Shown: positions 4,712 to 57,730, numbered from the stretch's first letter. The stretch: DNA of 57,730 bases from a virus (IMGVR_UViG_3300045141_000380:1-57730); one strand, 5' to 3'. Notes: a model not told the origin generated them from the sequence alone. Made by a program: numbers and translations.

Positions 4712-5527
4712 ATGTCGCTCATGAGGGTGCCGTGCCTGTTGCCTGCCGGACAATCGCTGTCGCAGGGAGCAGACTGCGGCGGCAACGGTCGGATTATCCG
4801 CATCAGCATGCCGCAGGACTGGACGCCGGCGCCGATAACGTTCCAGCTGTCGCCGGACGACACGACTTATCGCGATCTTTATCATACCACGCCGGATCAG
4901 TTCAGCATTTTCGAGGTGTCCGTCTCGGCGGTGCCGGGCGCCGTCGTGGTGCTGCCGGCGTCCATGGGTGGTGGGATTTCGTGGCTGAAGATACGTTCGG
5001 GCACTCGTACGGTGCCGGTGGCGCAGGCTGCGGATCGGCAGTTCACCATCACGTTGGATGCGCCGGATGCGGTGGCAGGTGGCGCACCTGGCCCTGCGGG
5101 ACCAGTTGGGCCTGCGGGGCCGATCGGGCCTGCGGGGCCGCAAGGCATCCATGGGGATCCGGCAGCCCCCGCTCTGCTGCAGACGGTCGTGCTCGGGCAT
5201 GCCAAGGGGGTGAACTACAACGTCATCGGCGACACCGCGATCGCGATAGCCGCCGCCAAGTACGCCATTACCCAGCTAGTGACGTTCAACAACGTCGGCG
5301 GTGCGGACAATTACACCGGCTCATTGCGGGATGCACCTAATGGCGCCGGGACCGATCTGGGCGGCTACGCCTATAATACGAACGGCCAGCTCGGCGACTG
5401 GTCGGACTTTCCGGGGCCGCTCCCAGTTATCGCCAATCCGATGCTGTATTTTCACATCGGCACCAAAGAAGGTGCTCCGGCGACGGGCGATCTTTACGTG
5501 ATGGGCTACGACCTGACAGGTTTGTAA
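4712..5527 (+). CDS. putative virion protein with short collagen-like segment
   Basis: GAGGAGG RBS; N-domain paralog of 4284-4649; [13 protein letters not shown] repeat. Confidence 0.65.
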   Translation: MSLMRVPCLLPAGQSLSQGADCGGNGRIIRISMPQDWTPAPITFQLSPDDTTYRDLYHTTPDQFSIFEVSVSAVPGAVVVLPASMGGGISWLKIRSGTRTVPVAQAADRQFTITLDAPDAVAGGAPGPAGPVGPAGPIGPAGPQGIHGDPAAPALLQTVVLGHAKGVNYNVIGDTAIAIAAAKYAITQLVTFNNVGGADNYTGSLRDAPNGAGTDLGGYAYNTNGQLGDWSDFPGPLPVIANPMLYFHIGTKEGAPATGDLYVMGYDLTGL

Positions 5528-6906: not shown

Positions 6907-7945
6907 CGTGACTGTCGAAGCCAAGCCGATGCCGCATCTGCCGATCGATCCGGACACCATCCCGGAAGCGGTCAGGAAGCGCGCCGCCGCGGTGGATGCG
7001 CTCTACACCGCCCAGCCGGCCCCGCAGGAGGCCCCACCGCCGCCTCCTCCGCCCCTGCCGGAGTCCGCTGCGCCCCCGCCGCCACCCGAGGAAGCCGCCC
7101 CGCCGCCCCCCGCAACCCCTGAAACTCCGCCGCCGCCGGCGCCCGAGGAGGACAGTGCGGAAAACTGGAAGCGGCGCTTCTTGAGGATGCAGGGCCAGTA
7201 CAACGCATCGCAGAAGACGCTCGGCGAAATGCAGGAGCAGATGGCCCAGCTCGGCGGCGAGCTGCTGGCGGTCCAGCAGGCGCAGCCGCGGTCGCCGCCC
7301 CGTCCGCCCACGCCGCCGCCGTCGTATCTGACCGAACAGGATATGCAGAACTACGGTGCCGACTTGGTGGACTTCACGCAGCGCGCCGCCGCGCAGGCCA
7401 TCGCCCCCAAACTCATGGAGATCGAGCAGCAGAACGCCGAGCTGCGCGAGCGCCTGGCGCGCGAAGCCCGCCGCAGCATGGACCAGCGGGTCGAGCAGGC
7501 AGTGCCGAACTTCCGCGAGATCGATCGCGATCCGCGCTGGCATAGCTGGCTCTTGGGTGTTGACCTCCTGTCCGGACGTGTTAGACAGCAATTGTTGAAC
7601 GAGGCTATCGCGTCAGCTGATGCCCCACGCGCAATCTCGTTCTTCAGAGGCTTCCAACAAGAGGAAGTAGCTACAGGCCACAACGAGCCAGCGCCCGTCT
7701 CCCACCAGGCAGCGCCTCCACGGGAACCGGCGATACCACTGGCCTCGCTTGCGGCCCCTGGCAGGGCAAGGCCGGCGACTGGAGGCGATGCCTCGTTGCC
7801 CCCCGAGAAACCCATCTACACGCGCGCCCAGATCGCGCAGCTCTACAGTGCGCACCGAAAGGGTGCGTATGTCGGGCGCGAAGCCGAGTGGGCTCGGCAG
7901 GACGCCGACATCATTGCTGCAGGCCGCGAAGGGCGCATCCGATAA
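6899..7945 (+). CDS. putative capsid scaffolding protein
   Basis: Pro-rich N-terminus, coiled coil, directly upstream of the capsid gene, C-terminal DIIAAGREGRIR. Confidence 0.65.
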   Translation: MVDVTVEAKPMPHLPIDPDTIPEAVRKRAAAVDALYTAQPAPQEAPPPPPPPLPESAAPPPPPEEAAPPPPATPETPPPPAPEEDSAENWKRRFLRMQGQYNASQKTLGEMQEQMAQLGGELLAVQQAQPRSPPRPPTPPPSYLTEQDMQNYGADLVDFTQRAAAQAIAPKLMEIEQQNAELRERLAREARRSMDQRVEQAVPNFREIDRDPRWHSWLLGVDLLSGRVRQQLLNEAIASADAPRAISFFRGFQQEEVATGHNEPAPVSHQAAPPREPAIPLASLAAPGRARPATGGDASLPPEKPIYTRAQIAQLYSAHRKGAYVGREAEWARQDADIIAAGREGRIR

Positions 7946-8002: not shown

Positions 8003-10399
8003 ATGGCTATCCCCACTGCGGGGTTTGGCGTCGCAACATCCGGCACGACGCCTCCCCTTACCCCCGTCGGCTCTACCGCCAACACGCTGCAATCGACCGG
8101 GTTCATCCCGGAGATATGGAGTGCAAAACTCGTCGAAAAATTTTATGCGAGTACCGTCTTGTCCGCGATATCGAATACCGATTATGAGGGCGAAATCGCG
8201 AATATGAGCGACCGGGTGAAAATCCGGACAAAACCCACGATCACGATCCGACCCTACCTTGCCGACGGTTTGCTTGGGCTTGATCGCCCGTCCGGCGGCT
8301 CGGTCGAGCTGTATATCGGGAACGGCTACTACTTCAGCCTGATCCTCGACGACGTGATGGAGGTGCAGAGCGATCTCAATCTGCTGAGCATGTGGAGTGA
8401 CGATAATTACGTTGTGTCGTCGGTAAACTAGGTCTAAAAAACTGGAAACCTTTATAAGGTAACCAGAGGGAAGGGATAGCAAGTTGATCTTGAGTGACAA
8501 ATACGCTGCTGGATTTCTTGATGGGGATGGTTCGATTCTTGTCGAGTCAATCAACAATGGTGCTGGAAAACGCCTTGTTTTGGCTTTCCATCAAAAAGAA
8601 TCCAATGGCGGAGTCATCGATCTTCTTGCTCAGCGGTTTTCAGGTGGACTACGGGATGACCGTTCTGGTCGCCGTCGAGGGACTGTAACTCATGCAGCTC
8701 GTCTTCGGTTTACCGGGCAAAAAGCGGTTGATCTGGTGTGCCGGTTGAAACCGTATCTCGTGGCAAAGCGTGTTCGTACTAACCGTATCCTGAGTGAGCT
8801 TGGGTTCACCGAACGGATAGGAACGGACAGCATTCCTGTTTATCCGTCTCGCAATTGGCTGGCGGGTTATTTCGATGCTGATGGTTGTGTGTATGCGCAC
8901 GCGAACAAGCGTACCGCAACTGTCAAACTGTCGATTGATTCCGATGGCCTGGAGAAGGATGGTCTCGTCCTGGTGCAGAAGGCATTTGGCGGGGTCATCC
9001 GGCAGCGAGGCGCGACAGGCAATTGCTGGCGATGGGAAGTTTCTGCGGATGCTGCGTTGGTCCGCAAGTTCTTCGATCCAATCGCGAAGCATCTGACTGT
9101 TAAACGGGAACAGGCGTATTTCATTCTGGGCTGCGCGAGGATGGGACATTTTCGCGACGGTCAGGTGATCGAAGATACGTTGAAGGCCATGAAGACCCAC
9201 CCGCACAGACTAAATGACCTGGCGGCTACTGTGGATGTATCTGCTGTACTTGCTCTAGTGCGTAATGTGCCCGATCCGCAAGGCCGATATTGGCATGCGG
9301 AAGGCGTTTTCTGCCAATGCGGAGGTAAGCCTTACGCTAAAGGCTTGTGCAAGAATTGCTGGCAGAATGAGCGCTATCATAGGCTCAAGCAGCCTACGCG
9401 CCATTATACTAGACGCAAACAGGCAGCGATCCCGGTGGTTGAAGCGATAGTCGGGACGAACGCTTAAAGGCGCTCGTTGGGCAGCACAGCAGTTAAAGAT
9501 CACGGTCGACAAGGACGTGCTCGGTGGGATTGTTGCCAAGGCCAACGCGTTCAACATGGGCGCGACGGCGGGCAGCGTTTCCGGCAACCTGAACCTCGGC
9601 ATCAAGGGCACGCCGCTGACGCTTGTGGGGGCGACGCCCACGACCGGGCAGATAACGATCCTGGATTGTCTGCTGCGGATGGGGCAGTGCCTCGACGAGT
9701 TCAACATCCCGGAGATCGGCCGGTGGGTGGTGATGCCGTCCTGGGCCGGGCGGCAGATCAAGCAAAGCGAACTCCGGCAAGCCTATCTGTCGGGCGATCC
9801 GGTGTCGATGCTGCGCAACGGCCGGCTCGGGATGGTGGACCGGTTCACGATCTATATCTCGAACCTGCTGCCGACGTCGGTTCAGGACGCGACGCATTTT
9901 GCGGCCGGCGAATACCCGATCTTCGCAGGGCATGCTCATGCGATCACGTTCGCGTCGCAAATCAGTAAGGTCGAAACATTGCGTTCCGAGCTGACATTTG
10001 GCCAAATCCTCAGAGGGTTAAAATTAGCTCTCGTTAAACTCCGTGAATTCGTCTGGGAAGCCCTGAGAGCCGAAGCGACCACAGCACAACCGGTAACGGT
10101 ATATGCGACGGTTTGAAAACATTTCGGATTGGGTAATCAGCAGCCAAGCCGCCCTGGAAGGGGTGGAAGGTTCAACGACTAGGCTGAGTAGTCCAGAACG
10201 GACGAAAAGCCCACGAGCGCGGAGCCTGCGCAAGCAGGAAGATATAGTCTGGTCTGCGGCGAAAGTCGCAGGGGGTCGGATAAAGAGCCGACCGATTGAT
10301 CTGATTGTACAGATCATGAAACACAACGTACAAGTGTATGGGTATCAAGTCCTAGACAACACAGCTTTGGTGCAATCGCAGGTCATTTCTGGCGGGTAA
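8003..10399 (+). CDS. major capsid protein (P22 gp5-like coat family), spliced join(8003..8404,9481..10018,10329..10399), 336 aa
   Basis: FIPEIWSAKLVEKFY...ISNTDYEGEI coat motif; joining gives continuous SMWSDD|AAQQLKITVD and FGQILRG-L-QVYGYQVL; exons total 1011 nt in frame. Confidence 0.88.
8405..9480 (+). ncRNA. group I self-splicing intron 1 in capsid gene (1076 nt, contains LAGLIDADG ORF)
   Basis: Exon ends in U8404; P1 GACGAU/GUCGUC(8416-21) with U.G wobble; P10 GUUGU/GCAGC; P3 UAGGUC(8429-34)/GACCUG(9216-21); P4 CUGG/CCAG; P7 CAGACUA(9206-12)/UAGUCG(9448-53); terminal G9480. Confidence 0.9.
8484..9467 (+). CDS. intron-encoded two-motif LAGLIDADG homing endonuclease with C-terminal Cys cluster
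   Basis: YAAGFLDGDGSI and WLAGYFDADGCV motifs; CQCGGKPYAKGLCKNC. Confidence 0.88.
   Translation: MILSDKYAAGFLDGDGSILVESINNGAGKRLVLAFHQKESNGGVIDLLAQRFSGGLRDDRSGRRRGTVTHAARLRFTGQKAVDLVCRLKPYLVAKRVRTNRILSELGFTERIGTDSIPVYPSRNWLAGYFDADGCVYAHANKRTATVKLSIDSDGLEKDGLVLVQKAFGGVIRQRGATGNCWRWEVSADAALVRKFFDPIAKHLTVKREQAYFILGCARMGHFRDGQVIEDTLKAMKTHPHRLNDLAATVDVSAVLALVRNVPDPQGRYWHAEGVFCQCGGKPYAKGLCKNCWQNERYHRLKQPTRHYTRRKQAAIPVVEAIVGTNA
10019..10328 (+). ncRNA. group I self-splicing intron 2 in capsid gene (310 nt, ORF-less, IA-like)
   Basis: Exon ends in U10018; P1 GAGGGU/GCUCUC(10027-32); Q GGGUAAUCAGCAGCCAAG; R UUCAACGACUA; S GAAGAUAUAGUCU; P3 CUCCGUG/CGCGGAG; P8 CCUGC-GCAA-GCAGG; extra stems between P7 and P3; terminal G10328. 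Confidence 0.92.
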
Positions 10400-10476
10400 A
10401 TCAAGAGGTTAGTAAAATCTCTTGACTGCCAGAACATTAGGTAATATGTTCTGGGTTTCCAGTGGAGACCCAGGAC

Positions 10477-11337
10477 ATGACTTGTGGGATTTACTTTATT
10501 CGGAGTCAGAGCGGAAAGATGTACATCGGCTCCTCGATACGGGTCGAGAAGCGCTGCATGCAGCATTTCAGCAATTTGCGTAAAAACCAGCACCATTCGC
10601 GCCGCTTATCAAAGGCATTTGTGAAGTACCAAGGCAAGGGCTTTGAGTGTGGCATTCTTGAAGAATGCCTTCCTGAAGAGTTGGAAGAGCGGGAACAGTT
10701 TTGGATCGATAAACTAAAGCCTCGATATAACTCACGCATGCAAGCGGATTCAAATAGAGGCTTGCGAATGACGGAGGCGGAGCGCGCTGCTCATGTCTTC
10801 CACATGAAAAATATGATTGCAGGCAGGCCGGAATTTCGTGATCACCTCGTCAACCTGAACAAGATGAATTGGGCTGATCCTGAAAAGAAGGCTGCCCGGG
10901 TTGCCTCTTTGAAGTCTGCGTGGACCCCAAAAAAACGCGCTGAGCAGTCCGAAAAACAGAAAGGCATCGACAACGGGAAGGCAGCTCGCGACGCTCGTTG
11001 GGCCAAACCTGGGGCCGGAGAGCGGCAAAGCAAGCTGACTAACCGGATTTGGGATCGCCGCGGTCGCAAAAACACTCCGGAAGCGGTCCACACCAAGGCG
11101 AGCGAACTCGGCTGGGAGTGCAAAGAGATCGGCCCACCAAGCAAGCCGGGTGCTGTTGATGGCCGTGTCACGATTTACTGTCCCAAGCACGACTACACCG
11201 GCATGCCGACCGTTCAAAAGTTGATGTATCAAGGGCAGGGGTGCCGGTACTGTGGCTTTGAGCGCTCATCTGAGAAGCAGATCGGTCGTCCCAAGCGCTT
11301 CGGGCCCCATGGACGCGCCGTCGCGTCAGGGCTATAA
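10477..11337 (+). CDS. free-standing GIY-YIG homing endonuclease
   Basis: CGIYFIRSQSGKMYIGSS...R...H, REQFWID, YN motifs; C-terminal CPKH...GCRYC. Confidence 0.9.
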   Translation: MTCGIYFIRSQSGKMYIGSSIRVEKRCMQHFSNLRKNQHHSRRLSKAFVKYQGKGFECGILEECLPEELEEREQFWIDKLKPRYNSRMQADSNRGLRMTEAERAAHVFHMKNMIAGRPEFRDHLVNLNKMNWADPEKKAARVASLKSAWTPKKRAEQSEKQKGIDNGKAARDARWAKPGAGERQSKLTNRIWDRRGRKNTPEAVHTKASELGWECKEIGPPSKPGAVDGRVTIYCPKHDYTGMPTVQKLMYQGQGCRYCGFERSSEKQIGRPKRFGPHGRAVASGL

Positions 11338-22783: not shown

Positions 22784-22873
22784 GATGGCCTCCGCAGAAG
22801 GTTGTTGCGGCAAGTGGCGAGGCCGGTGCATCAACACTGGCTTCGCTGCGCACTATAGCAGAAGGCACTTCAT

Positions 22874-50964: not shown

Positions 50965-51305
50965 AACTCACCCTCACCCTCACCGTCACGCCGTCCCGCA
51001 ACCCAGACGGCAGACGCGCATACTCGAACCGCGGCCAACTCTTCGACGCCGCCATCGACGACACCATCGTCGTCCGCCGCTCAACCCAGCCCTTCCTCGA
51101 CGGATGCCGAACCCTCATCGCAGCAGGCGCCGACCCTGACACCCCGGTCGCCATGCGCCACGCCGGGTCCGACCACGACGCCCTGACCTCCACCGTCGGG
51201 GCAGCCGCAAAGCTCACCGTCGAGGAAGGCGATAGAGCACCATACTTCCGCCAGTGGGAGCCGTCGCCACGTGCGGCGGTAAATCCGCCCAGCGATTTTC
51301 CATAG
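50961..51305 (+). CDS. hypothetical protein
   Basis: ATGA overlap; STQPFLDGCRTLIAAG...VGAAAKLTVEE. Confidence 0.6.
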   Translation: MKLTLTLTVTPSRNPDGRRAYSNRGQLFDAAIDDTIVVRRSTQPFLDGCRTLIAAGADPDTPVAMRHAGSDHDALTSTVGAAAKLTVEEGDRAPYFRQWEPSPRAAVNPPSDFP

Positions 51306-51876
51306 CCCCAAGCTAGGGGGGGGGCTGACCAGGAGGAAAACGCACCCACGGGCTTCCGCCAACGCAACAGGATAAGTGGTACACAAATACCAAATTGGTT
51401 TTCCGCAAACCCATATGCCGGGGACACGTATAAGAGCTCGGATGGGGGGTGGCCTGTCCAGGGTGGGGGTGGGGTAGGCCTGGGGTGGCTGTCTCATTAG
51501 CGGTCTCATTGGCAGTCTTGTTACGTTCCAAAGCGCAACTTCCCTTGTAGGGAACTCGCATCATTGAAAGCATTGGGTTATCGGCGCCAGTGTCCAGTCC
51601 GTGTCCGAAACAGATGCGGGCGGAAGCAGGCCATATGTGACCGTTCTGTCACATGTGGCTAAGCCCGTTCCATACAGTGGAACATTAGGTCAGCCTTCCT
51701 GACCTATTGGGGCGGAAACAGACATAATCAGATACTTGGTCTTAAAACCAGGTGTTAAACCATTTAGGACCATCTCCGCCCATCCCGATACTGTTTTCCC
51801 TACATTTACGCTTATTAAGACCGCGGTCTTTTGACAATCGTTGCCGCAACTATTAACAAAACTATTAATGACTGGT

Positions 51877-51905
51877 TTGCAAACCGCGGCATGTTTGTTT
51901 ATTCT
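51877..51905 (+). promoter_or_regulatory. sigma70-type promoter for small-gene cluster
   Basis: TTGCAA-17bp-TATTCT with AT-rich upstream region. Confidence 0.55.
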
Positions 51906-51960
51906 AATTAGACCGGATGCAGCGACATTCGGCGACAAACAAACTGCAAGGACAAACCCA

Positions 51961-52461
51961 ATGGCCACGATTACCAAGACTGATATTGCGGCGATCCGAT
52001 CCGCTGATAGGCTTTGCGTGCATTTGAATAAGAACAACTCTACGGGTCTTGTCAGGCTCATTAAGGGCCGCGACCGCGACAAGCCGTTCTCGGAGGATCA
52101 GGAATACGTATTGCCGTGCTCCGTTGAATTGCATGGTTATAACCATCGGAATGCGATTGAGAATGGCGCGCAATGTTTTGCGCATGTGTATTTGTTTCAT
52201 TCGCAGCATATTCCCGCGTCGTGCATCATGCGAACGTTGCGGGCTGGCGACGAGGTAACGTTTGTCTTTTACCCGGACGCCCATTCCAATGGTTATCTGG
52301 CGAAGGCCGGTTTGCATGGTGATGCGCTTTACATGCATGTAAGGCGTGGCGACAAGCGCTACGAATGGAACCTGCAAACGTCGACTTGCCCTGAGAACAG
52401 CGCGCGGATGTGCCGCGGCGTTCCGCCGTCTCAATCCTATCTGGACAGCGCAGCGGCGTGA
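51961..52461 (+). CDS. hypothetical protein
   Basis: AAGGACA RBS. Confidence 0.65.
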   Translation: MATITKTDIAAIRSADRLCVHLNKNNSTGLVRLIKGRDRDKPFSEDQEYVLPCSVELHGYNHRNAIENGAQCFAHVYLFHSQHIPASCIMRTLRAGDEVTFVFYPDAHSNGYLAKAGLHGDALYMHVRRGDKRYEWNLQTSTCPENSARMCRGVPPSQSYLDSAAA

Positions 52462-52556
52462 TGCGCGACGGTGACCGCTGCATGCGGTCACTATCGGGCT
52501 TCAAGCCTGGGCTTGCCAGCAAGCAAGCCTTAATGAGACTGAAAGGACAAACCAAA

Positions 52557-52757
52557 ATGTACGATCTTTCGCAGCCCAATGACGAGCCTGGCGAGTGCTG
52601 CAAATGCCGCGGCACTGGCATCTATCGTTGGGGCATGAATGGTTCCAAGGAGGGCCTGTGCTTCTCATGTGGAGGCGCTGGCAAGCAAACCCGATCTGAC
52701 ATTGGCCGCAATTGCGCTTACAACCGGCACAAGATTGCACGGATTGCGAGGCTGTGA
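52557..52757 (+). CDS. small zinc-finger protein (DnaJ-like CxxCxGxG x2)
   Basis: CCKCRGTG...CFSCGGAG. Confidence 0.65.
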   Translation: MYDLSQPNDEPGECCKCRGTGIYRWGMNGSKEGLCFSCGGAGKQTRSDIGRNCAYNRHKIARIARL

Positions 52758-52851
52758 CGCGCGACGGTGGCCCGCGTGACGGGCCACTATCGGGCGGCAA
52801 GCCCAAAGGGAACGGCAGCAACCGTTCTCGACATTGGAAAGGACAACGAAG

Positions 52852-53190
52852 ATGACAAAACGAATAGCAGATGAGTTGAAAGTTGGGGACGTGATTATGC
52901 CGCCGCCGCGGGAGCTTCAATTGTGGATGCGCCGCGACATAGCCAAACGCGGTTTGCCTGAATCGGCTTTGCACCTGACGATAACCAATATCGTGTGGGG
53001 CACCCCTGATAAGCGGGGCCGTTGGTTACTAGTGACGGCCGATCATGCCATTGAATGGCACGCTGGGCGCAAGCCTTATCCAATCAAGTTCAAGGTGCGG
53101 CCTGAGACGCCTTGGGAAGTGGTGTCCGCCGCGGATGCGTCCGACCCAATGGACGACTTCAATTACGTCGGCTCGAAGCACCACTATTGA
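52852..53190 (+). CDS. hypothetical protein
   Basis: Follows module 2 RBS. Confidence 0.65.
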   Translation: MTKRIADELKVGDVIMPPPRELQLWMRRDIAKRGLPESALHLTITNIVWGTPDKRGRWLLVTADHAIEWHAGRKPYPIKFKVRPETPWEVVSAADASDPMDDFNYVGSKHHY

Positions 53191-53253
53191 TATCTGCCGC
53201 GCGACGGTGCGGGCAGCAACCCGCACCTCCTTCAAACCGAAAGGACAAGACCA

Positions 53254-53391
53254 ATGAGTGATTCCACAGTAGCTGTTTTGGTGACGATTATCGGTATTGT
53301 ATTTTTTTTGCTCGGCTATTGCGGCGGTGGATACCGAACCTATGAAGCGACCGGAGAATCTGGCGAACTTCCGTATTCAGACCAACGCTGA
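53254..53391 (+). CDS. 45-aa membrane peptide
   Basis: Follows module 3 RBS; MSDSTVAVLVTIIGIVFFLLGYC read by hand. Confidence 0.55.
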   Translation: MSDSTVAVLVTIIGIVFFLLGYCGGGYRTYEATGESGELPYSDQR

Positions 53392-53518
53392 TACATGATC
53401 GCAGCCCATGGCGCTCCCTTTCACGGGGGCGCCATGACCGGCGATCCCGCCGAGCCCCGCCTGCGCGGGGGCAAGCTCTGGGCCAGCAAGCCCGGACACC
53501 CTGAAAGGACAGTATCCG

Positions 53519-53869
53519 ATGAAACTAAAGACCGTCGCTATTAGTTGCGCTTTAATAGCATCGATAATGCCAGCCGATGCCGGAATACTCGATTGGTTCA
53601 CGACGCCGTCGGCTTTTCCTAGCCGTGGTTATTACGAGGCATTTCTTGCCGGCGGCAAGAAAGGTTGTTTGAAAGAGATAGCGGCAGTCGTGGCAAATTC
53701 TGCAAATTACGACGCCTACTGCCAATGCTATGCGGTGGCTATCGCTGGGCACATAACCAGAATAGATTTGGAGATAGCAGAACGAACTAAGCTAACACCG
53801 TACGACTATGAAGACCGTCTTGCCATGCCGGCTCACGTTGCGTGTGTAGCAAAAGCCCCACGGCAGTAG
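53519..53869 (+). CDS. secreted Cys-containing protein
   Basis: Signal peptide; GC...YCQCY...AC; follows module 4. Confidence 0.65.
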   Translation: MKLKTVAISCALIASIMPADAGILDWFTTPSAFPSRGYYEAFLAGGKKGCLKEIAAVVANSANYDAYCQCYAVAIAGHITRIDLEIAERTKLTPYDYEDRLAMPAHVACVAKAPRQ

Positions 53870-53920
53870 CTGACGGAGGGGGCGCGCGAATGCGCCCTTC
53901 TCTCACGAGAGGGAACCGTG

Positions 53921-54088
53921 ATGACTATTGAAGAAAAGATTGAAGGCCAATTGACCGGGATTGATCACCGTCTAGCGGCGATCGATGGGCGGCTTGCGCG
54001 TATTCAAACCAACGGAACTTGGTTGTTTGCGGGGTTGTTGGCCTCTTTTGCTGCGGTCCTTGCTGTTGCGCTGCGCGTCACGCACTGA
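53921..54088 (+). CDS. 55-aa coiled-coil + TM protein
   Basis: GAGAGGG RBS; read by hand. Confidence 0.5.
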   Translation: MTIEEKIEGQLTGIDHRLAAIDGRLARIQTNGTWLFAGLLASFAAVLAVALRVTH

Positions 54089-54101
54089 CGGGACGGGCCA
54101 G

Positions 54102-54596
54102 ATGAATATCCCCGCAGGAAGCTATGTGCTCGCCACCAAATACCAGGATGGCGATCCCGGCGATGCCTGGGCGGTTGGCTTGTATCGTGGCCCGACGGGC
54201 GACGGGCGCCATTTGGTGGAGAACCCAGACGGCACGCTCATTTACGGACCGAACGGGTTTCGCCGTGTCCGTGCTGGCCTGCGCGCGGATGTAGGCCGGT
54301 GGCTTCTCGCGAATGCCGATGCCTTGGAGCGTTCACCGCCCGGGACGGTAAACCTCTGGACCATGCTAACCGATAAAGCGTTTGAAGAGAATGGCGGGGC
54401 CAGCAAGCCCGGACACCTGAAAGGACAAGACCATGAAGCTTCGTTACGTTCTACTGGCCTGCGCGCTACTGAGTGTTGCCCCGCTTGTGGTGGCGAAGGT
54501 CGCGACTTGCGCGGCCACCCCAACGATCCACATCCCAAAGATTACGGGATTTGCCCGGTTTGTGCAGGGCAGCGCTCGATAGAGGTGGGGGATTGA
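54102..54596 (+). CDS. hypothetical, apparently chimeric ORF reading through module 5 into a zinc finger
   Basis: YVLATKYQDGDPGDAWAVG N-domain; CPACGGEG...CPVCAG C-domain. Confidence 0.5.
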   Translation: MNIPAGSYVLATKYQDGDPGDAWAVGLYRGPTGDGRHLVENPDGTLIYGPNGFRRVRAGLRADVGRWLLANADALERSPPGTVNLWTMLTDKAFEENGGASKPGHLKGQDHEASLRSTGLRATECCPACGGEGRDLRGHPNDPHPKDYGICPVCAGQRSIEVGD

Positions 54597-54974
54597 TCCA
54601 AGATGGCGCCAAACGAAGCCCCTGAATGCCCGCGCTGTGCTGAATTGCGAGGCCGCTCCGTCAAGATGAGCACAGTAAAGAATGGACCGCGCAACATAGC
54701 CACCGCATACGAGTGTCCGAGTTGTGATTATGTGATTCCACTCGCAAATTTTACGCCCTTCTCGGAACGCCGAGGCGTGTGATAAGCATGCCCTCGCGTA
54801 GGCGGGGGCATCCCGTGCTGGTACGATGGCGGTTGTTTCCGAGGGGCCGTTTGTCCTTCGGTCCCTCCTCGCGAAGGCGGGGAACGACTGTTCATCCAGG
54901 CTCTCCGGGATTGCTGTCCCGGGGAGCCGACCCCCGCCTGCGCGGGGGCAAGCTTTTGGGGAAAAGGCGCGCTG

Positions 54975-55460
54975 ATGACCGAGGAGGCTCATGAGATTGC
55001 GATCCGGCTTGCGGACGAGGGCGTTCCTCTTGGTGCGATTGCGCGCTCGGTGCAACTACCTTCCGAAGAGCTGCGCCGGCATCTGTGTCTGGCGCGCGAC
55101 GCTGGGCGGCTGATATCGCTTCCGCGTCCTGACTGGCCACCCGGTTATCCGCGCGAGGAACGTGCGGTTGAGCTGTCGCGGCAGATTGTGAGCGACCGCG
55201 AGGCGTTGGCGATGGCGGCCAGGCAGATGTTCGATTTGACTCCTATTGAGGCCGATTTGTTCCTGCTGCTGCTGCAGCCCGGCATGATCCGGCGCGACGT
55301 TATGACCTCGACCCGGACGACGCATGTTCACGTGCATCGTCTGCGCAAGCATCTCTCCCCCTTTGGACTTCACATCGGCACTTTATATGGCGCCGGCTAC
55401 AAGCTGTATCCCGACCGCCGGCGCGCGATGGATTTGCTGCTGGGGCGGGAGGCGGCCTGA
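54975..55460 (+). CDS. OmpR/CtrA-type winged-helix protein without receiver domain
   Basis: LTPIEADLFLLLL...HVHVHRLRKHL...IGTLYGAGYKL. Confidence 0.65.
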   Translation: MTEEAHEIAIRLADEGVPLGAIARSVQLPSEELRRHLCLARDAGRLISLPRPDWPPGYPREERAVELSRQIVSDREALAMAARQMFDLTPIEADLFLLLLQPGMIRRDVMTSTRTTHVHVHRLRKHLSPFGLHIGTLYGAGYKLYPDRRRAMDLLLGREAA

Positions 55461-55839: not shown

Positions 55840-56298
55840 ATGCAAGGCTATCTGGCGATGATCATTCCGGTCGGCGGCGGCGGTCCCGTCGATCCGGGCT
55901 ATGGGCACCCTGGCGCCGACGGCGGCGGCAAGCCCATCTTCCACCCTGGCCACCCGGACCATGGCCTCCCGAGCGGCCCCGGCCATGTCTCCCCGCCGAT
56001 CTGGCATCCTGGGCACCCCGACCACGGGCTTCCCAGCTCACCGGGGCATCCGGCCAACCGTCCCCCAGGCAGCTACCCCGGCCGGCCGGATCAGGGCTTG
56101 CCGTGGGCACCGGGACATCCCGACGCGGGCCTGCCGGTTCCTCCCGGCATCACGCTCCCCGCCCCGCCCGCCGATCTTGCGAGCAAGCTGATCGTCCTCT
56201 GGCACGTTCCCGGCCAGACTGAGTGGCACGGCAAGGCGTTCGAGCCCGGCCACCCCGACGCTGGTCTGCCGCCTTCGGAAGCCCAGCCCAAGGCGTAA
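55840..56298 (+). CDS. Pro/His/Gly-rich repeat protein
   Basis: AAGGAG RBS; G(H/R)PDxGLP x5. Confidence 0.65.
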   Translation: MQGYLAMIIPVGGGGPVDPGYGHPGADGGGKPIFHPGHPDHGLPSGPGHVSPPIWHPGHPDHGLPSSPGHPANRPPGSYPGRPDQGLPWAPGHPDAGLPVPPGITLPAPPADLASKLIVLWHVPGQTEWHGKAFEPGHPDAGLPPSEAQPKA

Positions 56299-57041: not shown

Positions 57042-57730
57042 TTACGTCCACCCTGCTGCGCTCACCCGTGGCCGCTCCTGCCTTCTGGTCCGCGGCACCA
57101 GCCGGCGCGCCAGCTCCTGCACCAGGCCGCCGCTGACGATCAAAGAGGCGTATTGCAAGTCATCGCAAACGTGTGAGAAGCCCTCCACGTCGAACTTCTC
57201 GGGAACAGCGCGTAGCGCGCCCTCGCGGTGCCGCTTGAACCGGTAGCCCCCGTTCATGGCGCGCACCAGCATGGGGCACCCCGCGCCGTTGATCACCAGC
57301 GCCGGACCGCCATTGACTTGGCGCCCCAGCAGTTGCTCCACAGCCCGCAGCCGCTTGTCAATGTCGTTGGTCGGCGCCGGAAACGCCGGCAGCCCAAGCC
57401 GCTTTAAGGCATCGAAGCAGCTCTCCTCCGAGATGGTTCCCTTGGCGACCCCTGACGGATCGCCGACCACCACGAACTTCGCGCCTGAATACTTTCCCGA
57501 ATAAAGCCGCGGCCGCACGTTCTGCTCGATGTGCTTTTCCAATCCGATATTGGTGGCGGCGATCTCCTCGTGCACCAGCAGCCTTCCGAGATGGTCGACC
57601 TGACAGATCAGCGTCCACGGATTGCGGCCGAAGTCCTGGGCCAGAATCAGATTGTAGCCCGGCACCACCATGGTTTCCCGCACGTGGAACGCCCGATTGA
57701 AGGTGGCCCGGAACACCGCCTCGCCCGATG
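57042..57730 (-). CDS. terL: terminase large subunit, C-terminal nuclease part (5' end outside window)
   Basis: QDFGRNP, GDPSG, APTNDIDKRLRAVE, FSHVCDDLQY RNase H-like motifs. Confidence 0.85.
   Translation of the reverse strand, partial: SGEAVFRATFNRAFHVRETMVVPGYNLILAQDFGRNPWTLICQVDHLGRLLVHEEIAATNIGLEKHIEQNVRPRLYSGKYSGAKFVVVGDPSGVAKGTISEESCFDALKRLGLPAFPAPTNDIDKRLRAVEQLLGRQVNGGPALVINGAGCPMLVRAMNGGYRFKRHREGALRAVPEKFDVEGFSHVCDDLQYASLIVSGGLVQELARRLVPRTRRQERPRVSAAGWT

Follow-up and report, generated by a model that had tools for sequence, protein, structure and literature searches.

Repeated elements at gene starts have been described in several groups of phages, and the available parts of the published accounts outline three systems close to the one considered here. 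In Cluster K mycobacteriophages, the start-associated sequence (SAS) is a short asymmetric repeat with a Shine-Dalgarno core, located a short distance ahead of the start codon (ATG; a few nucleotides) in many non-structural genes of different families; an inverted repeat often stands in front of it, it occurs in one phage group only, and it was proposed by its authors to have an RNA or protein partner (PMC3203893). In T4-type phages, promoter-early stem-loop (PeSL) units, which combine a promoter, a terminator stem-loop and a Shine-Dalgarno sequence, are located in front of orphan genes within hyperplastic regions, where recombination between the repeats shuffles genes among close relatives (PMC2839356; see also PMC4122927). 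The c4 RNA of P1 and P7 is a small structured phage RNA with loops complementary to the ribosome-binding region of ant, the translation of which it blocks, and its specificity shifts between related phages by matched changes on both sides (PMC12197685). It is in phage early regions that genes for host takeover and anti-defence build up and are replaced most rapidly, and the correct expression of new genes there is poorly understood. In this study, we describe an array of hairpin modules in such a region of IMGVR_UViG_3300045141_000380, the entire record of which, a single viral contig of 57,730 bp with 61% G+C, is called the window below. Each module joins a hairpin with a constant hexaloop to an extended Shine-Dalgarno sequence and a start codon, and it is well supported that the modules, which occur in a small clade of soil phages not yet cultured, are a real structured RNA family akin to regulatory junction repeats.

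The SAS and its extended form (extended start-associated sequence, ESAS) are the nearest described elements and resemble the modules in their position at gene starts. The SAS consensus is the 13-bp GGGATAGGAGCCC, located 3–7 bp before the start (PMC3203893), whereas the sequence of the modules, GAAAGGACA at 5–9 nt before the ATG, is unrelated to it. As far as the available account goes, conserved 17-bp imperfect arms enclose a variable spacer in the ESAS, whereas here the arms vary at 8/8 positions with compensation and the loop is invariant; the host phylum is also another one, and the available text describes no matched structured antisense element (PMC3203893). The likeness to PeSL units lies in repeats that border variable orphan genes and in relatives that differ by exchanges at these repeats. 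PeSL loops, in the part of the report available, are not conserved (PMC2839356), whereas the module loop is constant; the PeSL stem-loop terminates transcription, and the modules have stable stems with no T run after them, the four terminator-like sites of our scan lying elsewhere. Relative to the PeSL, SAS and c4 literature, to which our search was limited, the constant loop on free stems, the covariation at the RNA level and a matched complementary element are new.

A first reading of the window, made from its sequence only (the sequence-only reading), had reported five hairpins with an invariant CAGCAA loop but different stems. All five were present at 52.5–54.4 kb, with loops starting at 52517, 52816, 53214, 53484 and 54401 and stems of 8, 8, 8, 7 and 4 bp, and the GAAAGGACA and ATG said to follow each of them were found in 5/5 cases, at 6–11 nt from hairpin to GAAAGGACA. 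The whole genome holds 5 copies of GAAAGGACA, all at modules, against 0.33 expected, and 5 copies were reached in 0 of 100 shuffles. CAGCAA itself occurs 27 times on the + strand, where only the 5 module copies have a flanking stem of at least 4 bp and the other 22 have stems of 3 bp or less; the − strand holds 21 copies, one with a 6-bp stem (54916). A sixth module, missed by the sequence-only reading because its loop is CAGCGA, precedes the gene at 51961.

All modules lie on the + strand. Module 0 (51913–51963; 20.6 bits in the covariance model) has the hairpin CCGGATG-CAGCGA-CATTCGG (51913–51932), AAGGACAA at 51948–51955 and its ATG at 51961. Module 1 (52509–52559; 23.0 bits) consists of GGGCTTGC-CAGCAA-GCAAGCCT (52509–52530), GAAAGGACA at 52541–52549 and an ATG at 52557, and module 2 (52808–52854; 25.6 bits) of GGGAACGG-CAGCAA-CCGTTCTC, GAAAGGACA at 52837–52845 and an ATG at 52852. 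In module 3 (53199–53256; 26.9 bits), GCGCGACGG is fused to GGTGCGGG-CAGCAA-CCCGCACC (53206–53227), followed by GAAAGGACA at 53239–53247 and an ATG at 53254. Module 4 (53477–53521; 22.2 bits) has TCTGGGC-CAGCAA-GCCCGGA (53477–53496), GAAAGGACA at 53503–53511 and an ATG at 53519, and module 5 (54397–54435; 21.9 bits) has the short GGGC-CAGCAA-GCCC, GAAAGGACA at 54419–54427 and an ATG at 54433. The opening sequence GCGCGACGGTG, which had been assigned to the first three CAGCAA copies, is found exactly three times (52463, 52759 and 53199), all at the array; with one mismatch permitted there were 12 matches against 4.96 expected, a looser count that is not remarkable, so that only the exact copies are meaningful. 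Counting the relatives described below, the foot of the hairpin stood 20–31 nt upstream of the start codon in 14/14 modules, and the Shine-Dalgarno sequence was unpaired in the centroid fold. The GAAAGGA within it fits the 3' end of the 16S rRNA of Alphaproteobacteria (...CCUCCUUUCU).

The regulator gene beside the array (54975–55460, + strand) encodes 161 amino acids with a Trans_reg_C-like C-terminus (E 1.2e-5; 25.7 bits against a cut-off of 26.2) and was the only useful anchor for finding relatives. It has 8 homologues in a large protein set, P0002 (84% regulator identity) being one of them, and a search with their alignment found 76 viral loci, at least 50 metagenome loci and no loci in genomes; closer relatives, such as the P0004 contig (64% regulator identity), were possibly missed among those metagenome loci. 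The hairpin design recurs in two lineages only. The first, L001, is a 47.6-kb viral contig with an 81% identical regulator; it carries four CAGCAA modules and one CAGCAAAA variant, and its orthologue of module 0 has the loop CAGCAA. The more distant L165/L166, a 55-kb contig with a 53% identical regulator, carries four modules in which the loop CGACAA precedes (A)CGAAAGGT(A/G)A and ATG, and it also has a fifth copy with a long stem; the extended Shine-Dalgarno sequence of this lineage is GAAAGGTAA, compared with GAAAGGACA in the window. Of the early-region proteins, the regulator alone had matches in both L001 and L166. More distant regulator-bearing contigs had repeated start contexts of their own and no fixed-loop hairpins, and L313 had a single CGGCAA hairpin and no array. 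When genome contigs were scanned for the pattern of hairpin and Shine-Dalgarno sequence, 88 stretches matched, none with a repeated module on inspection, and these were taken as chance; the viral matches numbered 6, the L001 contig alone being real. GenBank phages gave no match to the array (blastn), the regulator (tblastn) or one junction (blastn), nor did PLSDB plasmids. As a separate observation, L166 holds a repeated AAAATGTAACT(T/G)TACAA motif and the related TTGTTAAATTACAAG at 5290–5345, 7355–7400 and 8885–8900, overlapping promoter-like hexamers ahead of modules; the repeat is possibly an operator.

For the analysis of structure, 16 hairpin copies from the three lineages were aligned without gaps over 22 nt, and this alignment alone was used because MAFFT misaligned the stems when whole modules were supplied. 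In total, 90.6% of cells were paired compared with 45.0% in shuffles (0 of 500 reached the observed value), a percentage inflated by the fact that the copies had been found by a hairpin search, which to that extent counts against our reading; sliding the 3' partners gave 27.5–49.1%. An anchor independent of that search is provided by the five GAAAGGACA sites, all of which have such a hairpin. The loop is 6 nt long in 16/16 copies, with the consensus CRRCAA, and 8/8 stem pairs change on both sides; between module 2 and its L001 orthologue, for example, the stems are GGGAACGG/CCGTTCTC and GGGAACGA/TCGTTCTC, and the closing pair has gone from G-C to A-T with compensation. Among the inner 6 pairs of the 16 copies we counted 85 Watson-Crick, 9 G·U, 0 A·C and 2 other pairs. 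The presence of G·U without A·C places the helix on the strand bearing CRRCAA, the + strand, and argues for RNA. The module is thus a structured + strand RNA element, and the sequence-only reading, which took the compensatory stems for selection on single-stranded structure and named covariation in a larger alignment as a test, was borne out on both counts.

The loop is constant within a lineage and the stems have nothing in common, which indicates that the loop itself is under selection. When both strands of 127 sources were screened blind (loops of 4–8 nt, stems of at least 5 bp, Shine-Dalgarno sequence and start within 45 nt), at least 4 different stems were found only for CAGCAA (window and L001) and CGACAA (L165/L166), and no other loop exceeded 3. 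The design is therefore specific to a small clade and not a by-product of G+C-rich sequence. A covariance model run unfiltered over the genome ranked its 7 training copies at the top (20.6–26.9 bits), followed by a match of 18.9 bits. The latter is a hairpin of the structural region (22814–22849, + strand) with a perfect 15-bp stem and the loop CATCAA, followed by AGAAGGCAC and ATATG. When the hairpin model was used to search the full records of two relatives, 4/5 and 1/5 of the known copies were recovered and none was new, this first pass being too coarse for a small model. The absence of a described family, which the sequence-only reading had anticipated, was also observed: Rfam 15 searched at E<=10 over 51200–55100 gave 5 weak matches, the best of 17.7 bits against a cut-off of 41, and none of them lay on the CAGCAA hairpins of modules 0–5.

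The junctions are conserved between relatives, and the genes between them are replaced and reordered. Similarity between the window and L001 extends to the ATG at 51961 and stops there; inside the array (51.9–54.8 kb) it is limited to junction pieces of 31–94 nt with 77–94% identity. Junction order differs as well, junction 2 coming ahead of junction 1 in L001. Unlike the flanking genes, the open reading frames (ORFs) of the window at 52.4–54.8 kb gave no match by tblastn (E<=1e-5) in either L001 or L166. Variants of the same kind were present among the listed matches to contigs from two other soil runs; of the runs used, one may be the source sample. In one contig, 52471 is joined to 52787 via a different 21-nt hairpin, so that cassette 1 is gone; in another, 53897 is joined to 54769, the same as in L001; and further contigs join junction 2 back to junction 1 or carry additional stem variants. 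Variation of cargo order and content among relatives, a check proposed by the sequence-only reading, was therefore seen. What is conserved is a portable RNA "socket" before the genes and not the genes, which provides a testable model for plug-and-play expression of cassettes.

Between the array and the regulator gene lies a 109-nt anti-module element (54821–54929, + strand) composed of hairpin 1 (54825–54896) and hairpin 2 (54899–54928). Its + strand folds at −68.3 kcal/mol (z −6.0; 41 pairs including 7 G·U), compared with −44.8 kcal/mol (z −1.8) for the − strand. On the + strand, hairpin 1 presents a 9-nt apical loop, UUUGUCCUU (54850–54858), complementary to AAGGACAAA; the loop is complementary to AAGGACAA(A) in 5/6 modules and, over 7 nt, to module 4. 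The genome holds 10 copies of AAGGACAA against 0.76 expected, 5 of them in modules and one in the 109-nt element on the − strand. Hairpin 2 contains TTGCTG (54911–54916), the complement of the CAGCAA loop, and is complementary to the whole module 4-type hairpin at 16/18 positions; one of the weak Rfam matches, scr4677 (54899–54931, − strand), overlies it. The block is 100% identical in L001, where its flanks carry indels and the adjoining regulator has 81% protein identity, and a conserved anti-module 24-mer was found in the L001 contig only. In L001, a terminator-like hairpin and a conserved TGTGATAAGCAT precede the element and the regulator comes after it, a placement that fits + strand transcription as the regulator's leader. 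L166 has an element of the same build (9553–9652) that is matched to its own modules, with CGACAA and, after about 42 nt, GAAAGGTAA with no start codon behind it. The helix closing its anti-Shine-Dalgarno loop uses U·G pairs and thus forms on the anti-module strand only. The element shares with c4 RNA loops complementary to a ribosome-binding region; c4 targets one operon leader (ant), whereas the candidate here would address at least six cistrons through the shared module and an additional hairpin-loop contact. P4 CI RNA is a similar antisense-type phage RNA.

Upstream of module 0 lies a candidate early promoter, TTGCAA-N17-TATTCT (51877–51905, + strand), with 7 nt between its end and the first hairpin. 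The window and L001 agree fully in the two hexamers and differ in the 17-nt spacer; the spacer also varies in soil-metagenome contigs, with no hexamer change among the matches listed. A direct repeat, AACTATTAA-CAA-AACTATTAA (51849–51868, + strand), is located just upstream of the candidate −35 hexamer and is mostly kept in L001; it is possibly a binding site for the OmpR-type regulator. Farther upstream, about 570 nt (51306–51876, + strand) contain no convincing ORF and are about 79% identical to L001, and this stretch could offer room for regulatory sites or an RNA.

We consider it probable that the modules are RNA leaders which give a uniform translation start to exchangeable early cassettes, with a loop recognised by one partner in trans, and which double as exchange joints. 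For the modules and the 109-nt element, we infer a function in translation or transcript stability, recognition in trans and RNA–RNA pairing. In the early-operon mRNA, read from the + strand, each unit would be a leader in which a stable hairpin with a free stem and a constant hexaloop is followed by the extended Shine-Dalgarno sequence. The first module would lie at the predicted 5' end of the transcript, and the later ones behind accessory motifs of types A and B (see below). Hairpin and Shine-Dalgarno sequence together would provide every cassette with the same strong, insulated translation start, perhaps with a protective 5' stem, and the constant loop would be the handle by which a single lineage-specific trans-acting partner addresses all cassettes together. 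Since the junctions are the sole sequence common to unrelated cassettes, they would also be the sites of cassette gain, loss and reordering.

The 109-nt RNA is the best candidate for the partner, which we tentatively regard as a realistic possibility. Offering anti-Shine-Dalgarno and anti-CAGCAA loops, it would pair with each module, block the ribosome site and silence the array jointly. If it is the partner, it would represent a one-to-many antisense switch with re-codable specificity, which would interest phage biology, help to locate early and anti-defence genes of uncultured phages by their junctions and serve as a compact design for coordinated translational control. With more reserve, we suggest a complete regulatory circuit, in which a single structured RNA in the regulator's leader might read a two-part address, hexaloop plus extended Shine-Dalgarno sequence, before every cassette. 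New cassettes inserted between junctions would fall under one translational switch in such a circuit, and its specificity would be re-set by matched changes, with CAGCAA/AAGGACAA facing UUGCUG/UUGUCCUU in one case and CGACAA/GAAAGGUAA facing UUGUCG/UUACCUUUC in the other.

Several points, besides the inflated pairing percentage given above, weigh against this model. The L166 element is inverted relative to the orientation in the window, so that, in one lineage or more, the proposed acting strand is not the operon strand and would have to be transcribed from a separate promoter; no such promoter was found, and the two strands of the L166 element fold about equally (z −4.1 and −4.6). The identity of the 109-nt block between the window and L001 could result from recent exchange, the neighbouring segments to the right being 92–97% identical, and concerted evolution among repeats could be the source of the match between modules and element. 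With three lineages and two loop types, the co-variation of modules and element rests on two independent points. The candidate promoter matches the sigma-70 consensus at 8/12 positions and was not listed by our promoter scan, and therefore its assignment is drawn from conservation. Finally, a run search listed no RNA sequencing runs containing the stretch; three DNA runs do contain it.

The main alternative, which we regard as possible but rather unlikely, is that the loop is an operator for a phage or host RNA-binding protein, with the 109-nt element acting through its module-like strand as an extra high-affinity site or decoy. Such a protein could be a translational activator or repressor like Mu Com or T4 RegA, or an antiterminator of the N/boxB kind. 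Hairpins bound by proteins usually show a constant loop on a stem that is free to vary, and the difference in loop between lineages, CAGCAA versus CGACAA, would be expected if a phage-encoded binder co-evolved with it. The long-stem copy of L166 stands in sense orientation in the leader of a helix-turn-helix gene upstream of the regulator, and the array encodes small zinc-ribbon proteins. However, no conserved binder candidate was found: the regulator is the only early-region protein matched in all three lineages and its domains are of the DNA-binding type, the zinc-ribbon gene (54603–54782, + strand) is absent from L001, and the module-like strand of the 109-nt element folds poorly in the window and L001.

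The boxB hairpin, to which the sequence-only reading had compared the modules, has a 5-bp stem and a GNRA-like pentaloop, stands beside boxA once or twice per operon and is bound by an N protein with an arginine-rich motif. The modules share with it the short hairpin, the conserved purine-rich loop and the variable stem, and the P22 boxB loop GACAA resembles the CGACAA of L166. However, a hexaloop on a stem of 4–11 bp, ahead of each gene and at a set distance from the start, fits boxB poorly, and boxA or an N homologue was not systematically searched. The comparison with N4 hairpin promoters fared no better. These have stems of 5–7 bp and a 3-nt loop and are used by a virion RNA polymerase of about 3,500 amino acids, whereas the loop here has 6 nt and the largest ORF of the window encodes 1,334 amino acids, with no PHROG match at E<=1e-5.

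It is improbable that the modules work with no trans factor at all, the hairpins being passive insulators or 5' stabilisers, the types A and B processing or 3'-protective elements, and the loop being kept by folding or by descent. The hairpin of module 0 at the predicted 5' end, the position of the hairpin foot at −20 to −31, on the edge of the ribosome footprint, and the irregular 17–20 bp helices of types A and B directly past stop codons would all agree with such a role. However, the stems have diverged at 8/8 positions with the loop constant within a lineage, for which descent alone is insufficient, the other lineage has a second, different constant loop, and the matched complementary element would be left as an unexplained coincidence.

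We give very little weight to a role of the junctions at the DNA level as folded single-strand recombination sites resembling integron attC, at which a site-specific recombinase would move cassettes. An attC site acts as folded DNA, carries RYYYAAC/GTTRRRY cores and needs the IntI integrase. The likeness lies in conserved ends around a variable self-complementary centre (in type A, conserved flanks around a fully compensated stem), in promoterless ORFs of one orientation behind one promoter, and in the gain, loss and reordering of cassettes at junctions in a genome that encodes a tyrosine integrase. By contrast, G·U pairs without A·C pairs indicate RNA over DNA, the R''/R' core was not seen in the modules and junction sequences on inspection, and the constant distance to the Shine-Dalgarno sequence and start is a feature of translation. 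Homologous recombination between repeats accounts for the shuffling, and the integrase matches ordinary phage integrase families, the IntI-specific domain not having been tested for.

Equally remote is the reading of the modules as PeSL-type promoter–terminator cassettes, each starting its own transcript and stopping the previous one. The architecture that had suggested the analogy is alike in the available part of that report (stop codon, stem-loop, Shine-Dalgarno sequence and start, ahead of the orphan genes of a variable region; PMC2839356). However, the sigma-70 consensus promoter that defines each PeSL cassette is missing from the internal modules in a simple scan (2 promoter-like sites listed in the 4 kb of 51200–55200 against 2.4 expected, none in a module), a test weakened in that the promoter consensus of the host may be another one; no hairpin is followed by a T run, and the conserved hexamers occur at module 0 only.

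Two accessory motifs, types A and B, stand upstream of the CAGCAA hairpin and start just past the preceding stop codon. Type A occurs twice in the window (52463–52508 and 52759–52804, + strand), each time as GCGCGACGG, a variable hairpin and CTATCGGGC-N-GCCY, and the additional hairpins that the sequence-only reading had seen in copies 1 and 2 proved to be part of it. A scan with the Type A pattern gave at least 118 new viral loci, 13 of which have a central stem of at least 5 bp. Full motifs were 9 distinct ones from at least 8 viral contigs (the window, L305, L323, L345, L349, L392, L410 and L001), located after stop codons and before a Shine-Dalgarno sequence and start; over these contigs the last part of the motif reads CTATCGGGC-N4-6-GCCC. 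Their variable helix was 100% paired over the 9 motifs, with 7/8 pairs changed on both sides, although the pairing is overstated because the motifs had been pre-filtered for a stem. Type B (53397–53453, + strand) consists in the window of GATCGCAGCCCA, a variable hairpin and TGACCGGCGATCCCGCCGA. Its general form, GATCGCAGCCCA, variable hairpin and TGAMCGGCGATCNNGCCGA, was found in 7 viral stretches, each time just upstream of a Shine-Dalgarno sequence and start. An outer stem, GATCGC/GCGATC, encloses a covarying inner hairpin and is followed by CCGCCGA and the Shine-Dalgarno sequence, and the motif is shared by several viral contigs that otherwise differ (window 53397–53453; L001 9199–9252 and 9585–9640; L166 7750–7812; L221/L224; L225/L226).

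Neither type had an Rfam match. Both were seen in contigs with no CRRCAA hairpin, and most Type A contigs have no CAGCAA hairpin, which indicates that the junctions are assembled from separable parts. Together with the sixth module and the matched inverted element, the occurrence of accessory motifs in these contigs goes beyond what the sequence-only reading had noticed. Each type folds as an irregular helix of 17–20 bp, a size that would suit double-strand-specific processing. In T7, RNase III sites lie between the early genes, to which the types A and B might be compared. Each is by itself a candidate for a new phage RNA motif, an intercistronic one in the case of Type A.

The cargo genes, all on the + strand, gave few matches to known families. 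Cargo gene 0 (51961–52461) encodes 166 amino acids from the ATG of module 0, has no Pfam family and matches phrog_27970 weakly; protein-anchored searches with it found no relative. Cargo gene 1 (52557–52757; 66 amino acids) has CxxCxGxG motifs and matches phrog_4095 (E 6.9e-7), and cargo gene 2 (52852–53190) encodes 112 amino acids; neither has a match in L001/L166. Cargo gene 3 (53254–53391) encodes a hydrophobic protein of 45 amino acids, and cargo gene 4 (53519–53869) one of 116 amino acids with a signal-peptide-like N-terminus. A terminator-like GC-rich hairpin followed by TTCTCT (53873–53903, + strand) is kept in L001 (93.75% over 32 nt), where it ends the array. After it, two overlapping frames (54102–54596 and 54433–54582, + strand) are both protein-like: the ATG of module 5 opens a signal-peptide-like ORF of 49 amino acids, and the frame 54102–54596 reads through module 5 to a terminal CxxCxGxG segment that is zinc-finger-like and has weak similarity to cargo 1 (E 0.008). 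The cargo of module 5 is uncertain because the module lies inside this open frame, and the similarity does not settle which frame is used.

The sequence-only reading had suggested host-takeover or anti-defence cargo. In the window itself, 0/8 proteins of 51961–54782 reach the Pfam cut-off, 7 having no hit at E<=0.01 and the eighth two sub-threshold hits. The cargo of relatives includes ArdC (two domains, E 2.4e-35 and 1.6e-43), DUF2958, an AAA_5 ATPase and DUF7192. As ArdC is an anti-restriction factor, an anti-defence role of the arrays is plausible, judged from this one cassette in one relative.

The genome as a whole looks like that of a temperate tailed phage and encodes an integrase, a RecT-like protein, a primase/helicase, an endolysin and an internal virion protein. 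The sole hint at a host is a 3.4-kb contig binned in a Caulobacteraceae metagenome-assembled genome (MAG), which codes for a relative, at 66% identity, of the 57042–57716 protein. A group I intron (RF00028; 9983–10271, + strand; 55.6 bits) is the only Rfam match of the whole window at the gathering threshold, and it is flanked by ORFs at 8484–9464 and 10462–11334, both of which match HNH/homing endonuclease families. Many GGTCCGACCGG-type 9-mers at 13.3–18.7 kb (+ strand) look like collagen-like Gly-X-Y coding repeats of probable tail-fibre genes, and similar repeats are present in many related loci. Downstream of the regulator, a 152-amino-acid ORF (55840–56298, + strand) is built from GHPDHGLP-like repeat units and matched no Pfam or PHROG family.

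A further hairpin of 22–24 nt, CCCCGCCTGCGCGGGGGCAAGC(T), has two copies in the window (53455–53476 and 54932–54953, + strand), and both homologous places in L001 lack it, as if the copies had been inserted. In Rfam it gave only weak CRISPR-DR28 matches (E 1.2 and 2.8), and a CRISPR repeat was ruled out as its identity since the genomic copies are solitary and dispersed. The exact 22-mer was present in 67 bacterial-genome stretches of many phyla (Planctomycetota, Bacteroidota, Alphaproteobacteria, Chloroflexi and others), mostly solitary, several per MAG and often nested within a longer inverted repeat; the hairpin is a tiny dispersed element.

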